Source: Candidatus Microgenomates bacterium (GTDB lineage: Bacteria; Patescibacteriota; Dojkabacteria; SC72). From it: a stretch of 41,034 nt of DNA. The stretch is taken from assembly GCA_012797935.1 (NCBI GenBank), contig JAAZOC010000052.1, positions 1-41,034 on the forward strand, read 5' to 3'. Within the stretch, counting starts at the first letter, position 1; every line of letters starts with the position of its first letter. Below, piece after piece: positions 14,821-20,790 of the stretch. A program made the translations under genes and the position numbers. A model generated the notes under the pieces. The model was not told the DNA's origin, searched no databases, and was given only the letters and a program-made list of their open reading frames with translations.

Positions 14821-15216
14821 GTGGAGAAGAAATATTTTGAAGGAATTGGAAGAAGAAAAAGATCAACCGCAAGAGTAAGAATCTACAGCGGAGATAAAGC
14901 ATCTACTATAAATGGTAAGGCTATAAATTTGTATTTTGCTAATGGTGAAGATACTGAAATAGTATTAAACAGACCATTAATAGTTGTTGGTTTAGAAAAT
15001 AAGTATTACTTTACTGCAACTGTTTCTGGTGGTGGTATCACAGGTCAAATAGAAGCTATTAGATTAGGACTTGCAAGAGCATTGTACTCAATGGATTCTG
15101 AATTAAAGCCAACTCTTAGAAAAGAGAAATTGGTATCAAGAGATCCAAGAGAAGTTGAAAGAAAGAAATACAACCACGTTAAAGCAAGAAAGAAACCTCA
15201 GTTCTCAAAGAGATAG
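14821..15216 (+). CDS. rpsI: 30S ribosomal protein S9 (GTG start)
   Basis: Contains GRRKRSTARVRI...RDPREVERKKYNHVKARKKPQFSKR. The only in-frame start near the N-terminus is GTG at 14821. Confidence 0.93.
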   Translation: MEKKYFEGIGRRKRSTARVRIYSGDKASTINGKAINLYFANGEDTEIVLNRPLIVVGLENKYYFTATVSGGGITGQIEAIRLGLARALYSMDSELKPTLRKEKLVSRDPREVERKKYNHVKARKKPQFSKR

Positions 15217-16170: not shown

Positions 16171-16478
16171 GGGTGCAAGTATTACAGGATGATTGCATTT
16201 ACTTTTAGTAAATGAGGAAAGTCCGGACTCCATGTCAGTCTAGAACATATCTAGATAGGTGCCAACGAGAGTTGGAAGGGAGTGATCTTTTGGATAAAAG
16301 GGCAACAGAAAGTTATACCGCCTAATTTATTAGGTAAGGGTGAAATGGTAGTGTAAGAGACTACCGGGTATTACAGTAATGCAATATCGCGTGGTAACCC
16401 CCTCCTGGAGCAAGGTTAAACCGCATAGATAGATAATCATCGTTATACAGAATCCGGCTTATTGTGTACTTGCACAAC
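16171..16478 (+). ncRNA. rnpB: RNase P RNA, bacterial type A, compact (about 308 nt)
   Basis: The 5' P4 strand GAGGAAAGTCCGGAC is near 16213 and the 3' P4 strand ACAGAATCCGGCTTA is at 16447-16461. P1 pairs gtgcaagt (16173-16180) with acttgcac (16468-16475). No ORF is present. The ends are approximate. Confidence 0.85.
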
Positions 16479-16543: not shown

Positions 16544-17704
16544 ATGGAAAATGAAATAGAGAATAGTGAGAGTCTACAAGAGGATTTACAAAATCCAATT
16601 TCTTCTTTGTGCGAATTAATGGAAGCTAATGAATCAGCAAGGTATCTTAACTCCTTTGGGCAACTTGAGGGTATTAAAACTGTTGATCATTTGCTTAAAG
16701 AAATTAGAACAAAAGTAAAGAATACAGAACCAAAACAAGTACAAGAAGAGAAAGTATCAGTCCTTTCTTCTGAAGAATTCTATAAAGTATTTACAGCCTC
16801 TGCATCTAAATTTGTAGAGCAAGGAGTACAAGAGAAATTTAGAAGATCAAATGTATTAGTTGGCGGAGCTGGAAGTATTGGTAACCCAATAGCTATGATG
16901 GCTGTAAGATCAGGAGCTGAAAATATAACAATAGCAGACCCAGATGTTGTTGAAGATTCAAATCTTGCAAGACAAGAATATCTAAAAGATCAAGTTGGCA
17001 AGAACAAAGCGGAAATGACAGTTGAGAATATGTCGAAAATAAATCCATATGCAAAAGATAAGCTAAAAAGTATTCCAGAGGGTATAACAAAAGAAAATGT
17101 AGAAGAGTTAGTAAAAAATTCTGACATAATTATTGATGGTATTGATATCAGAGCCGCAGATATGTCTTGGGAGTTACACAAATATGCATGCCAGTATAAG
17201 AAACCTGTTATTGTTGGTTATGATATGGCAGGCACAGCAATGGTAGCTGTTTACAGGTATGATAAAGATGTAGAAAAAGTATTAAATGGTGAAATATCTG
17301 AAGAAACTATAGAAGAATTTAAAAAAGTAAAATCCGCATACAAAGAGGGAAGAATAAAAGAATCAGAATTTTTAAACTATGTATATGATACATTAACTGG
17401 GCCAATTAATCCTTTGAAAGTACCTGTTGAACAGTTCAAAGAACTAATATCTAGAGATAGTAATGATACCCGTACTTACCAAGATGGTACTACTTCCCGT
17501 TTGTTAAGTGCTTTAACGATTGAAACTATGAGAAAAATTTATGCCGGAGAAGAAGTTAAAAAGATTATTACTTTAGATTTACCATCATCTGTTAGAAGAT
17601 TTAATCCAACAATTTTTACAAAAGTAGGACTAATGTTAAAAGCTCTTAATGTTGTTAACAAAAGAGGTGCGGAAGTTAAAGATATGACAAATAAATTGAA
17701 ATAA
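16544..17704 (+). CDS. ThiF/MoeB/HesA-family (E1-like) adenylyltransferase, atypical
   Basis: Contains VLVGGAGSIGNPIAMMAVRSGAENITIADPDVVEDSNLARQ...DIIIDGIDIRAAD. This covers the Rossmann GxGxxG loop, the SNLxRQ motif and the acidic Mg site. It has an extra N-terminal region and no CxxC pairs. Confidence 0.8.
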   Translation: MENEIENSESLQEDLQNPISSLCELMEANESARYLNSFGQLEGIKTVDHLLKEIRTKVKNTEPKQVQEEKVSVLSSEEFYKVFTASASKFVEQGVQEKFRRSNVLVGGAGSIGNPIAMMAVRSGAENITIADPDVVEDSNLARQEYLKDQVGKNKAEMTVENMSKINPYAKDKLKSIPEGITKENVEELVKNSDIIIDGIDIRAADMSWELHKYACQYKKPVIVGYDMAGTAMVAVYRYDKDVEKVLNGEISEETIEEFKKVKSAYKEGRIKESEFLNYVYDTLTGPINPLKVPVEQFKELISRDSNDTRTYQDGTTSRLLSALTIETMRKIYAGEEVKKIITLDLPSSVRRFNPTIFTKVGLMLKALNVVNKRGAEVKDMTNKLK

Positions 17705-17711
17705 AAAAATA

Positions 17712-18509
17712 ATGGACGAAAACAAAGAGGTCTCAATACAAGAGTTAGAACCGGAGAAGATTTTTTTCAATGTTGCGGAGACTGAGGAAGATAAACTAGG
17801 AAGATTGAAGGTAGTAACTGAAAGATATGGAAAAGAAGGGTATTTAGAAGATATAAAAGTACATGAATCTTCTTCTAAGATATCGGATCTACTAGAAAAG
17901 GGTGGTATCTCAATACTTGAGAAAGAATTACAACCTGGTGAATTTCAAGAATTTTTAGAACATGGAATTCTTGTTCATGATGAATCAGGACAAGATTATT
18001 ATATTGATAAATATACTTGGAATTCTGTGCCTTTTGTAGCAAAACAAGGTGGTGAATATGTTGGTTCTGCAAGAATGATAATAAAAAATGGATTTAATTT
18101 ACCAACACTTTCAGATCCGACTATTCATATTGATGAGAATTGGAAAGAAAAAGTGAAAGATTGTAAGATAGAATTCTCTCAGTTTGCTGTAAAAAAAGGA
18201 TCCCCTGCAGGAGTTTCAATTGGTTTGCTTCGTGCAGCACATATATATAGTAGAGATGTATTAAAAATATCAGATTGGGTTGCAACTATTGATGATAGAG
18301 TTGTAAGACTCTTGAACAGTAATTTCTTTCATTTTGAACTTCCACAAATAGGTCCAGGTGTTTTGTATTTAGGATCCCTTTCTGTACCTGTCCTTGTAAA
18401 CTTTGAGAAAGCTTTAGAAAATGCTGAAAAACACGAAAACAGTAAAAACATGGCACAATTCATAAGGGGAAATGATGTCGAAGGATTTGATTGGTATTCT
18501 GGTAAATAA
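17712..18509 (+). CDS. GNAT-fold N-acyltransferase-like protein (LuxI / FeeM N-acyl amino acid synthase-like)
   Basis: Motif pattern: DKYTWNSVPFVA..GEYVGSARMII..LPT; IEFSQFAVKK; GLLRAAHIYS..WVATIDDRVVRLLNS.FFHF..IGPGVLYLGS.SVPVL. The family assignment comes from remembered sequence patterns, not a search. Confidence 0.5.
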   Translation: MDENKEVSIQELEPEKIFFNVAETEEDKLGRLKVVTERYGKEGYLEDIKVHESSSKISDLLEKGGISILEKELQPGEFQEFLEHGILVHDESGQDYYIDKYTWNSVPFVAKQGGEYVGSARMIIKNGFNLPTLSDPTIHIDENWKEKVKDCKIEFSQFAVKKGSPAGVSIGLLRAAHIYSRDVLKISDWVATIDDRVVRLLNSNFFHFELPQIGPGVLYLGSLSVPVLVNFEKALENAEKHENSKNMAQFIRGNDVEGFDWYSGK

Positions 18510-18525
18510 GAGTATATAAATAAAA

Positions 18526-20790
18526 ATGGAAACTGTCTTACTCTCTATAATCTGTATAGCTCTAGTTGGTTTGGGCTTACTTACTTTCTTTGCTAATACA
18601 AAAGGAAAAACAAATAGATATTTCCTTCTTCTTACACTCTTTGCTTCTCTCTGGATATTATCAAACTATTTTTCCAATATAAGAACTGATACTAATGAAG
18701 TTCTGTTCTACAATAAAATGATTTTCTTTAATACATCTTTCTTGGTCTATTTCCTTTATCTTTTTTCAACTGTTTACCCCAATCAAAAAAATGAAATATC
18801 CAAAACTGCTAAAATATTAACATTTATATTCACAATATTAACGGCCGCTATCTCATTGTCAGGATATTTAGTAAAAGATATATCTATCCAGCAATCTCAT
18901 TCGAATATTACTTTTGGAATTGGAATCATAATATATCTTTTACAATTTATACTATTCGCATTCCTCTTTATTTGGAATATAGTAAAAAGCTATAAAGTGT
19001 CTGAAGGAGTAGAAAAGGTAAAAGTTCAATATCTATTCCTAGGAATATCGTTTTCGCTTATTGGTACATGTATAACTAATTTAATATTACCAATCTTCTT
19101 TTCAAATTTTGAACTCTCAAACATTGGCCCATTATTCCTTCTATTCTTCATCATATTTACAACAGTTTCGATAGTTCGTTTTAGATTGTTTGGTATAAGA
19201 TTCCTTTTTGCACAAATAGTAAACACAATAGTTGGAACGGCAATCCCATATATAAGTTTCTTCCTAATATATTTCATATTCACGAAGTTTTTGGGAGGGG
19301 TTTTTTCTACTCTATCTTTGATAATTGGAATATTCTTTGCTCTTCTTTTTTCATATATTTATTCTCTAATTAAGGATAAATGTCGAAAGTTACTCCTTGG
19401 GAAATTTGCATACAGAGGTTTTGATCCAAACGAATTGATCACAAGGTATGTTAAAGATATTAGTACTGAATTGGATATGGATAAACTTTCAAATAATGTT
19501 TTAACTTTGATTAAAGATATTTTCAGCATCAGTAATATAGGTATTATCGTTTTCAAAGGAGAGGGGGAGAATATTGTATTTAAGAAATTGTGGGGGTATG
19601 AAGAAGACCAGTTTTTGTTTAATAGCTTAATTTCAGTTACAAAGTATTGGGATGAAGTAAAAGAGAATGTGCCAATTTTGAAAGAGGAGATATCTGTATC
19701 TGATGATGTAAATCCAAAACTAAAAGAAATTCACGATAATATGAAAAGGTTTGATCTTGAAATGATACTTCCTCTAAACAAGAGAGTAAGTTTGAATGGA
19801 TTAATCTTTTTTGGAAAAAGAGAAGATAAGAAAAATTTTACTGCTGAAGAAATTCAATTCTTAGAGAATATTGTTATGAATACTTCTGTCGCTATAGGTA
19901 GGGCAATTCTTTATGAAGAAGTTAAGGAATTTAATCTTACTCTTCAGGCAAAGGTTGAAGAACAAACAGAAGAGCTTCAAATAAAAGTAAAGCAGTTGCA
20001 AGAATCGAGAGAAAAAGAAAGAGATATGATTGACATTATGGGGCATGAATTGAGGACCCCTGCAACAGTTGTAAAACTTAATGCTGAACTTTTGGAAGGT
20101 TTTACTGAAAATATTATGAATAATAAAGAAAAGTTTAAAACATATGTATCTAGGATTCGAAATGCTGTTGAAAATGAAATTAAGCTCATTAATACTCTTT
20201 TGAGTAGTGCAAAATTAGAAGGTAATAAAATTGAATTGAAACTGGAGGAAATAGATATTGTTAAAGAAATAGAAATGGCAATTGTTGGTCATGAATTTAA
20301 GGCTAAAGAAAAAGGCTTAGGACTTGTAAATTCTGTTTTGAAAGATACTCCATCTATATTTGCAGATCATGCTCGATTAATAGAAGTGCTTAATAATCTC
20401 ATAGATAATGCAATAAAATATACAGAAAGAGGAACAGTTACAATTGATTCTTCTTTTGATGAAAAAATGGTTTATATAAGTGTGATTGATTCTGGTCAAG
20501 GAATTAGTGAAGAGGATATTGCAAACCTTGGAAAGAAATTCTTTAGAGTTGGGAATTATTTAAATAAAGGAGAGGGTAAACCTGATGTTGTAAGACCTGG
20601 TGGTACAGGATTAGGCCTCTATGTTACATTCGGCCTAGTAGAAAAAATGGGTGGCAAAATAACTGTAGAAAGTAAAATAGGGGTAGGAAGTACATTCACA
20701 TTTTCTCTGCCAAGATATGTTGGACAAGATAGCGGTAAAGTAAAATCTAAAACAAATAATATGTTTGAAAGGCTTGGATTACAAAGGTAA
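18526..20790 (+). CDS. Sensor histidine kinase: N-terminal polytopic (7TM-type) domain, GAF, HisKA, HATPase_c
   Basis: About 7-8 hydrophobic helices span residues 1-290. The GAF-like end reads LPLNKRVSLNGLIFFGKRE...AIGRAILYEE. The H-box is MGHELRTPAT (His codon 20044-20046). The N-box is NLIDNAIKYT, followed by DSGQGIS and GGTGLGLY. Confidence 0.9.
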   Translation: METVLLSIICIALVGLGLLTFFANTKGKTNRYFLLLTLFASLWILSNYFSNIRTDTNEVLFYNKMIFFNTSFLVYFLYLFSTVYPNQKNEISKTAKILTFIFTILTAAISLSGYLVKDISIQQSHSNITFGIGIIIYLLQFILFAFLFIWNIVKSYKVSEGVEKVKVQYLFLGISFSLIGTCITNLILPIFFSNFELSNIGPLFLLFFIIFTTVSIVRFRLFGIRFLFAQIVNTIVGTAIPYISFFLIYFIFTKFLGGVFSTLSLIIGIFFALLFSYIYSLIKDKCRKLLLGKFAYRGFDPNELITRYVKDISTELDMDKLSNNVLTLIKDIFSISNIGIIVFKGEGENIVFKKLWGYEEDQFLFNSLISVTKYWDEVKENVPILKEEISVSDDVNPKLKEIHDNMKRFDLEMILPLNKRVSLNGLIFFGKREDKKNFTAEEIQFLENIVMNTSVAIGRAILYEEVKEFNLTLQAKVEEQTEELQIKVKQLQESREKERDMIDIMGHELRTPATVVKLNAELLEGFTENIMNNKEKFKTYVSRIRNAVENEIKLINTLLSSAKLEGNKIELKLEEIDIVKEIEMAIVGHEFKAKEKGLGLVNSVLKDTPSIFADHARLIEVLNNLIDNAIKYTERGTVTIDSSFDEKMVYISVIDSGQGISEEDIANLGKKFFRVGNYLNKGEGKPDVVRPGGTGLGLYVTFGLVEKMGGKITVESKIGVGSTFTFSLPRYVGQDSGKVKSKTNNMFERLGLQR

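Follow-up and report, generated by a model that had tools for sequence, protein, structure and literature searches.

The stretch of DNA analysed here (hereafter the window) is a 41,034-nucleotide contig (JAAZOC010000052.1, forward strand; C101 in our numbering) from the 598-kb, 96% complete genome (G000) of a Candidatus Microgenomates bacterium of the Dojkabacteria (assembly GCA_012797935.1), and the gene in question encodes a 265-residue protein with the fold of FeeM and the LuxI-type acyl-homoserine lactone (AHL) synthases. It is the middle gene of a same-strand operon (16544–20790), preceded by a gene for a ThiF/E1-like adenylyltransferase and followed by one for a sensor histidine kinase (Table 1). 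The gaps are 7 nucleotides (ThiF to GNAT) and 16 nucleotides (GNAT to kinase), both junctions are A/T-rich, and a promoter/terminator scan placed no terminator-like site between the three genes (such sites are no commoner than in shuffled sequence, hence this is uninformative). An initial annotation, made from the letters of the sequence, had singled out the 265-residue open reading frame (ORF) for its synthase-like motifs and had called it unexpected in a minimal-looking genome among housekeeping genes. The ORF is present and all the quoted motifs are found in its translation (FFNVAETEEDKLGRLKVV at residues 18–35, DKYTWNSVPFVA..GEYVGSARMII..LPT at 99–132, IEFSQFAVKK at 153–162 and GLLRAA...YLGS.SVPVLVNF at 171–231); the setting is also as described, with a ribosomal operon, RNase P RNA and fmt as neighbours in a genome of such small size. 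What does not stand is the picture of an isolated oddity, since the gene is the centre of a conserved ThiF–GNAT–kinase cassette.

Table 1. Features of the cassette and its borders, with positions in the window.
Feature	Position	Strand	Basis
ThiF/E1-like adenylyltransferase, AclA-like, adenylation-only, 386 aa	16544..17704	+	Pfam ThiF, motifs, 9EGB match
N-terminal extension of ThiF	16544..16750	+	low-confidence model (pLDDT 39–63)
FeeM/LuxI-fold GNAT, predicted N-acyltransferase, 265 aa	17712..18509	+	Pfam FeeM, AlphaFold2 model, Foldseek, family alignment
Family-specific helical insert of GNAT, residues ~48–92	17853..17987	+	alignments, AlphaFold2 model
R121 codon (GSAR motif)	18072..18074	+	invariant in family and canonical FeeM alignments
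E154 codon (EFSQF), presumed catalytic base	18171..18173	+	family alignments
Sensor histidine kinase, 754 aa	18526..20790	+	Pfam domains, conserved linkage
RNase P RNA, compact bacterial type A	16176..16476	+	157 bits; 301 nt vs 367-position model
Overlap of convergent fmt with kinase 3′ end, 12 nt	20779..20790

The 265-residue protein and its adenylyltransferase partner

The 265-residue protein matches the Pfam FeeM model (PF21926) over residues 93–203 with 29.7 bits (gathering cutoff 27, E 6.6e-7), and the same model is matched independently by 22 of the 41 members of its family, such that the motifs exceed what chance would supply. An AlphaFold2 model built from 27 sequences is confident (predicted local distance difference test, pLDDT, 90.5; predicted template modelling score, pTM, 0.86). 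The top 16 Foldseek matches to this model in the PDB are FeeM (2G0B, E 4e-7, TM-score 0.69–0.74 on the target) and the AHL synthases RpaI, MesI, BjaI, LasI, EsaI and TofI, with generic GNATs ranking below them. Eleven positions are invariant in the 41-sequence alignment (Y39, D99, S119, R121, P131, E154, D194, V197, G221, S222 and P226); on alignment with Pfam-verified canonical FeeM proteins, R121 and G221 are still invariant and E154, D194 and P226 are conserved to at least 90%. We take R121 to be the GxxR arginine and E154 the ExS glutamate of the FeeM/LuxI clade, the latter presumably occupying the general-base position of FeeM and LuxI enzymes. Profile, fold and conserved residues together support placement of the protein as a distant branch of the FeeM/LuxI-fold clade, with a predicted N-acyltransferase function.

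The initial annotation had arrived at a FeeM/LuxI-type GNAT from motifs, and this call is borne out by the Pfam score above the gathering threshold, by FeeM and the AHL synthases as nearest folds of a confident model, and by the conservation of R121 and E154. Among the subfamilies that it named, FeeM holds; LuxI proper (Autoind_synth, PF00765, no match at E up to 1) and the exosortase-associated type (TIGR03694) do not. It had also remarked on an N-terminal insert of about 45 residues, which indeed has no counterpart in canonical FeeM proteins and is absent as well from a sub-branch of the family (P0040, P0043, P0045, P0048, P0050 and L051). The insert is modelled with high confidence (pLDDT >90) as a small helical subdomain, one strand plus three helices, that separates helix 1 from the GNAT core. 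When 1.84 billion representatives were searched exhaustively with HMMER, 72 relatives were returned at E ≤1e-3, of which 45 fall at ≤1e-10; the family is real but rare.

The gene directly upstream encodes a ThiF-type protein (PF00899, 1.3e-31) whose adenylation motifs are conserved among 30 orthologues (GxGSxG at residues 108–113, D132, N140/R143/Q144, K155 and D198/D201). In the same 30 orthologues no alignment column reaches 30% conservation of cysteine and no CxxC occurs, so the adenylate must be resolved by a nucleophile of the substrate, not by an enzyme thioester or sulfur carrier. We rejected assignment to the E1-type activators of ubiquitin-like (Ubl) proteins (ThiF/MoeB/Uba) for want of a catalytic or persulfide cysteine, a zinc-binding CxxC pair and a Ubl partner; no ThiS/MoaD-like ORF adjoins the cassette in the loci examined. 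With phmmer the top-scoring PDB entry is 9EGB, "AclA from Tenacibaculum discolor in complex with substrate", and a profile of the ThiF family ranks AclA first among PDB entries (114 bits, compared with 89 for Uba1, 76 for TcdA, 75 for ThiF, 71 for MccB and 70 for MoeB). The predicted fold agrees (Foldseek E 1.2e-13 to AclA, target TM-score 0.79, 22–23% identity; 16–17% for ThiF/MoeB), and hhalign places the profile of these proteins, which come from the Candidate Phyla Radiation (CPR), against a T. discolor AclA homologue with 99.2% probability and E 7e-20 over 233 columns. The NCBIfam Rv1355c-family model scores 55.9 bits against a cutoff of 476, lower than the generic ThiF models. AclA is reportedly an enzyme of the N-acyl-cyclolysine (ACL) pathway found in Bacteroidota; its structures are deposited as 9EGB, 9EGC and 9EGD. 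The window's ThiF further carries an N-terminal extension of ~55–70 residues that is common only to an 88%-identical relative (L017), other orthologues being 317–352 residues long.

Two alternative roles turn on this enzyme. Proteins, peptides or tRNA are the substrates of most ThiF-like enzymes that have been characterised (PMC12596934), and the structural matches of the window's protein include MccB and PaaA; it could thus activate the C-terminus of a protein (Ubl-type) or of a ribosomally made and modified peptide (microcin C/pantocin-type), with the GNAT acting on the peptide or conferring MccE-like self-immunity. Small ribbon-helix-helix (RHH)-like ORFs before ThiF in a few loci (L002, L008, L013) might be counted in favour of such a peptide route, but no small ORF is conserved across loci, these ones resemble RHH DNA-binding proteins, and the corresponding space in the window is taken up by RNase P RNA. 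Moreover, the ThiF has neither the conserved cysteine, zinc motif nor peptide-clamp domain, no E2, JAB or Ubl partner accompanies it, its best match AclA has a small molecule as its substrate, and the GNAT is of FeeM/LuxI rather than RimL/MccE type; we regard activation of a protein or peptide as quite improbable. The RHH (RelB/CopG-like) ORFs themselves, which lie just before ThiF at L002:4779–5003, L008:4804–4977 and L013:1512–1727 and do not occur in the window, may be operon regulators.

The second role is anti-phage defence by a Cap2/E1-like system. The PADLOC E1–E2 models and the NCBIfam 6A-MBL cap2_3 model that match ThiF cover the generic adenylation core only (residues 95–200) and do so far under the family cutoffs, and although several loci have variable, island-like surroundings (restriction, Fic, ArdC or integrase genes), neither an E2 domain nor a catalytic cysteine is present, and no defence model matches the GNAT or the kinase. 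As the PADLOC matches are to generic E1-core models only, we rejected the defence reading, to which we assign a negligible chance.

Linkage and co-variation with a sensor kinase

Some 40 related loci served for comparison with the window; they come from metagenomes and from genomes of Dojkabacteria, Saccharibacteria and unclassified CPR bacteria. ThiF is directly upstream of the GNAT in every one of the ~40 with upstream DNA (gap 0–20 nucleotides, or overlapping), and natural fusions are found: P0051 (543 residues) joins ThiF and FeeM in one chain, and P0063 likewise has ThiF before a GNAT-like region. A kinase homologue of 743–774 residues follows the GNAT in about 15 of 17 distinct close lineages. 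The flanking genes are wholly different from one locus to another (ribosomal in the window; elsewhere ArdC/Fic/integrase, trpS/mreB/ATP-grasp, glycosyltransferase or restriction-type genes), and of 401 genomes surveyed in the phylum, 9 have the GNAT family, four of these within the window's own family; all four other genomes of the window's genus are without it. The cassette is therefore a patchy accessory module.

More divergent relatives separate the constant from the variable parts of this module. An insert-less branch (27–29% identity; L050–53) keeps the ThiF–GNAT pair, here divergent to a HisKA_7TM kinase that is followed by a 128-residue stand-alone receiver and then a CAP-domain protein; on the flanks of the whole unit are pilM, genes for N_methyl pilins and one for a C39-like peptidase. 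L013 has receiver, ThiF, GNAT and kinase in that order on one strand. Five weak GNAT matches in other families of the phylum each have a homologous kinase downstream, with a third gene that varies: ThiF in L070 (order GNAT–ThiF–kinase), a methyltransferase in L071, an AdoMet_dc-like protein plus a receiver in L072, a pyridoxal phosphate-dependent ornithine/arginine decarboxylase in L073, and none in L074, where a receiver lies alongside. Stand-alone receivers thus adjoin the cassette in L013, L050–53, L072 and L074, and the GNAT–kinase linkage is deeper than the GNAT–ThiF linkage.

The kinase comprises HisKA_7TM (residues 8–224), GAF (316–457), HisKA (499–566) and HATPase_c (614–730) domains. 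Its seven-transmembrane (7TM) part is 30–33% identical to that of the insert-less-branch kinases (E ~1e-30), whose catalytic core also matches, and finds the NCBIfam model LIC10906_fam at 3.8e-11; a weak match to the LuxN sensor domain (4.3e-4 for the window, 0.014 for the distant L051 kinase) scores 18.5 bits against a threshold of 1550, and we claim no membership on that account. A PEP-CTERM/exosortase acyltransferase working with PrsK was also considered and rejected, as TIGR03694 is silent on the GNAT and the 7TM part matches LIC10906_fam and LuxN, not PrsK (NCBIfam). In a partial Mantel-type test on 20 complete trios, several of them near-duplicates, GNAT divergence follows 7TM divergence with r 0.95, and the relationship persists once the kinase core is controlled for (partial r 0.68, permutation p 5e-4); the converse comparison, GNAT with kinase core controlling for 7TM, leaves a partial r of 0.05.

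Several observations on the loci stand apart from these comparisons. In L071 (G041:C2, 5525–8258), two proteins of ~455 residues match the 7TM part of the kinase only, and so are kinase-less copies of the sensor domain. The CAP/PR-1-domain protein of L050–53 (PF00188, 315 residues) is conserved, and is an unusual companion for a two-component pair. In L015/L038/L039 the pair is followed by a 284-residue protein that has no Pfam match and by transposase-like ORFs; this lineage comes from a "Bacteroidota" bin, on a 2.7-kb contig, and its binning may reflect misassignment or horizontal transfer. In the window itself, the upstream order is ribosomal-protein operon (ending at 15216), DUF4349 gene, RNase P RNA, ThiF; because the RNA fills the gap between DUF4349 and ThiF, the cassette promoter must fall in the 67 nucleotides after it. 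On the other side, the gene that overlaps the kinase is fmt, for methionyl-tRNA formyltransferase.

A candidate signalling circuit, its rivals and its weak points

The reading that we favour, if only modestly, is that the two enzymes form a synthase pair of the ACL/oxazolone type whose product, a cyclised N-acyl amino acid, is sensed by the adjacent 7TM kinase. In a first step, the GNAT would N-acylate an amino acid from an acyl thioester, probably a short or medium acyl-coenzyme A (CoA), a donor proposed in view of the lack of any acyl carrier protein (ACP) in the genome. The co-translated ThiF/AclA-like enzyme would then, judging by its homologues, adenylate the carboxylate of this product with ATP, and a nucleophile within the substrate would resolve the adenylate, giving either a lactam, the ring found in the N-acyl-cyclolysines, or the kind of saturated oxazolone that TrzS forms in its first step. 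Conserved linkage and co-variation suggest that this lipophilic product would, thirdly, be sensed by the 7TM domain of the kinase.

The identity of the acyl donor bears directly on the first step. With no PP-binding protein in the genome, acyl-ACP is an unlikely donor. A CoA thioester may be the donor, given that acetyl-CoA-type GNATs are encoded (an Elp3-like radical-SAM/GNAT protein on C52 and a RimI-like GNAT fragment on C80), from which acetyl-CoA is probably present in the cell, and that the nearest folds include CoA-dependent AHL synthases. Since ACP, acyl-CoA ligase and CoaE are all missing, we also keep as an alternative a ThiF-made acyl-adenylate or else an aminoacyl-tRNA, although neither has a precedent as donor in this GNAT clade.

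The fourth step, the output, is the most speculative. The genome encodes no DNA-binding response regulator, and its only response regulator is a 130-residue stand-alone CheY-like receiver (C95:7187–7501, minus strand; L048:3131–3523) inside a type IV pilus operon, where it comes after genes for a prepilin peptidase and four pseudopilin-like proteins and before pilM and pilN/O-like genes. HisKA kinases number two: that of the window and a paralogue at C46:1–1860 (plus strand; L049), a 7TM–GAF protein cut by the contig start. The two are 39% identical overall, highly similar in the dimerisation/phosphotransfer and catalytic half and far more divergent in the sensor half, which is consistent with two inputs into one receiver. 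The kinase might then phosphorylate the CheY-like receiver, with pilus-dependent behaviour, not transcription, as the output; we put this route to type IV pili forward tentatively.

Instead of a signal, the pair could make an N-acyl amino acid or oxazolone-type lipid for use as a membrane component, surfactant or antibiotic, on the model of the long-chain N-acyl tyrosines of FeeM or the mycobacterial tyrazolones, the kinase being a mere regulator or a co-inherited neighbour. The products of FeeM and of Oxz/Tyz/Trz have no proven receptor (PMC10404671, PMC12856293), the pair occurs without the kinase in two close lineages, and an organism whose genome has neither ACP nor PlsC must scavenge its lipids. 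Such a structural or antibiotic product nevertheless leaves it hard to see why GNAT–kinase adjacency is kept across very deep divergence and differing gene orders, why the enzymes co-vary specifically with the sensor half of the kinase, and by what DNA-binding response regulator, none being encoded, the kinase could control the operon; the nearest homologues of both enzymes, moreover, are those of a proven signalling pathway (the second of them putative). We consider this alternative unlikely, though worth keeping in mind.

The kinase might otherwise sense an external or host cue, the enzymes being its output or a passenger (a sensor–effector unit), or the GNAT modifying or inactivating a foreign acyl signal. 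The kinase does have a GAF domain besides its 7TM region, and partner enzymes that vary by lineage (ThiF, decarboxylases, methyltransferases) could be processing different environmental amines. Against the enzymes as an output is that they contain no receiver or phospho-acceptor domain, the only receiver of the genome being the stand-alone CheY-like protein elsewhere, and a synthase beside a receptor is the typical layout of autoinducer systems; external sensing of this sort seems to us improbable.

A number of points weigh against signalling by a cyclised N-acyl amino acid, in whole or in part. The evidence is computational throughout. The Pfam FeeM score is barely over its threshold, no NCBIfam model (TIGR03694 and the AHL synthase models included) matches the GNAT, and a sequence-profile search of the PDB with the GNAT family yielded chance matches only, so the branch is a distant one. 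The protein encoded beside AclA in Tenacibaculum, to which we return below, matches only moderately and has a histidine at the E154 position. The 96% complete genome has no matches for PP-binding/ACP, an AMP-binding acyl-CoA ligase, CoaE or a PlsC-type acyltransferase, which leaves a donor problem. Two close lineages (L033–37 and L015/38/39) have no kinase downstream. As for the co-variation, partial Mantel tests are liberal and several of the 20 trios are close relatives, and the signal could stem from physical linkage, with recombination blocks that reach into the kinase gene and take in its 5′ half. The pilus link, finally, is based on adjacency in one distant branch (L050–53) and on where the sole receiver of this genome lies, and the true partner of that receiver could be the C46 paralogue.

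A broader reading, which we offer as a conjecture of doubtful standing, is that CPR bacteria carry modular self-signalling circuits in which a FeeM-like GNAT and a 7TM kinase form a constant core, a swapped third enzyme varies the head group of an N-acyl signal, and a CheY-like/type IV pilus pathway provides the read-out. The third enzymes might then be an AclA-like ThiF cyclase, an ornithine/arginine-type decarboxylase, an AdoMet-decarboxylase-like protein and methyltransferases, an assignment just as tentative. Within the body of literature searched, no paper described a ThiF–GNAT–7TM-kinase cassette, and there was nothing relevant on CPR quorum sensing, CPR kinase–pilus circuits or HisKA_7TM function.

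CPR bacteria (Patescibacteria) are viewed as stripped-down episymbionts with scant regulation. In this genome, with its single response regulator, one of only two sensor kinases is tied to an enzyme pair of signal-synthase type. If a diffusible acyl amino-acid derivative were indeed sensed by the kinase, ultra-small bacteria would have density or kin signalling of their own, a second type of receptor, a membrane kinase, would be added for molecules of the ACL/oxazolone class, and the type IV pilus link would join signalling to host attachment. Should the modular circuit hold, it would be the first cell–cell chemical language described in ultra-small bacteria, with a receptor class new for ACL/oxazolone-type molecules and a read-out that bypasses transcription to act on the pili with which episymbionts find and hold their hosts. 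What the oxazolones do physiologically has yet to be settled (PMC12856293). The three-gene system is small and directly testable by heterologous expression.

Comparison with known synthase–receptor systems

The cassette resembles the Vibrio systems in gene layout. A synthase gene beside its receptor gene is the standard arrangement of autoinducer systems (LuxM/LuxN, CqsA/CqsS), and in these the receptor is likewise a polytopic membrane histidine kinase; the window's kinase would bind a lipophilic signal in its transmembrane domain. The Vibrio synthases belong to other families, and what lies downstream here is a single CheY-like receiver. With FeeM and LuxI enzymes, the window's GNAT has in common the GNAT sub-fold and the conserved arginine and glutamate of the active-site strands; it differs in its low identity (11–17%), in having no Autoind_synth match, in its extra helical insert and in its obligatory ThiF partner. 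FeeM and most LuxI enzymes use acyl-ACP as donor, whereas ACP is missing from this genome.

The pairing of the two enzyme types has a precedent in the oxazolone systems. OxzA/OxzB of Pseudoalteromonas rubra, TyzA/B/C, and TrzA/TrzS of Mycobacterium tuberculosis each combine a FeeM/BjaI-fold N-acyl amino acid synthase, with acyl-CoA as donor, and a ThiF-type enzyme (bioRxiv 10.1101/2020.06.11.147165; PMC10404671; PMC12856293). Biochemical work on OxzB, TyzB and TrzS has shown that the ThiF-type enzyme cyclises N-acyl amino acids at the expense of ATP (PMC10404671, PMC12856293), and a 2025 review names OxzB as the sole ThiF-like enzyme with a known small-molecule substrate (PMC12596934). All known members of these systems have a nitroreductase-family flavin desaturase, fused or adjacent, which the cassette lacks: no PF00881 (nitroreductase) match was found anywhere in the 96%-complete genome or in any related locus, and on this ground we rejected membership among the oxazolone synthetases. 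TrzS cyclises before it desaturates, the saturated ring accumulating when the desaturase is disabled (PMC12856293), and a system with ThiF only could therefore make the saturated ring. The product of the cassette would then be at most a saturated, more labile oxazolone like the TrzS intermediate. The oxazolones, moreover, have no known receptor.

The nearest parallel for both enzymes is the ACL system of Bacteroidota. According to two reports, a pair of enzymes whose genes adjoin luxR produces the ACL ligands, which are secreted and serve density-dependent signalling through a LuxR-type repressor (PMC13080023, PMC13419125). We located AclA homologues by means of AclA segments and read two Tenacibaculum loci, each of which holds ThiF, an oppositely oriented GerE/LuxR gene, and a gene for a protein of 201–216 residues that has no Pfam annotation and is 69% identical between the two species. 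Against the CPR GNAT profile this protein, putatively the second ACL enzyme, gives a moderate match (92–94% probability, E 6e-7 and 1e-7) that extends over the GNAT core and takes in both the GS.R and the YLGS..P motif. Judged by these alignments, both enzymes of the cassette are homologous to the ThiF-like enzyme and the putative second enzyme of an ACL signalling locus.

What the two systems appear to share is a pair of synthase genes, one ThiF-like and the other small and FeeM-like (the latter putative in the ACL locus), beside a receptor gene (putative in our case). They differ in dimensions, the CPR ThiF being ~80 residues longer and the CPR GNAT carrying its 45-residue insert, at an identity of 22–26%, and above all in the receptor: no GerE protein occurs in any cassette locus examined, a 7TM histidine kinase standing in its place, so that a cytoplasmic LuxR/GerE transcription factor on the one side would correspond to a putative 7TM–GAF histidine kinase receptor with a CheY-like partner on the other. 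The synthase chemistry would thus be of a known kind, and what appears to be new here is the predicted class of receptor and the phylum in which it is found.

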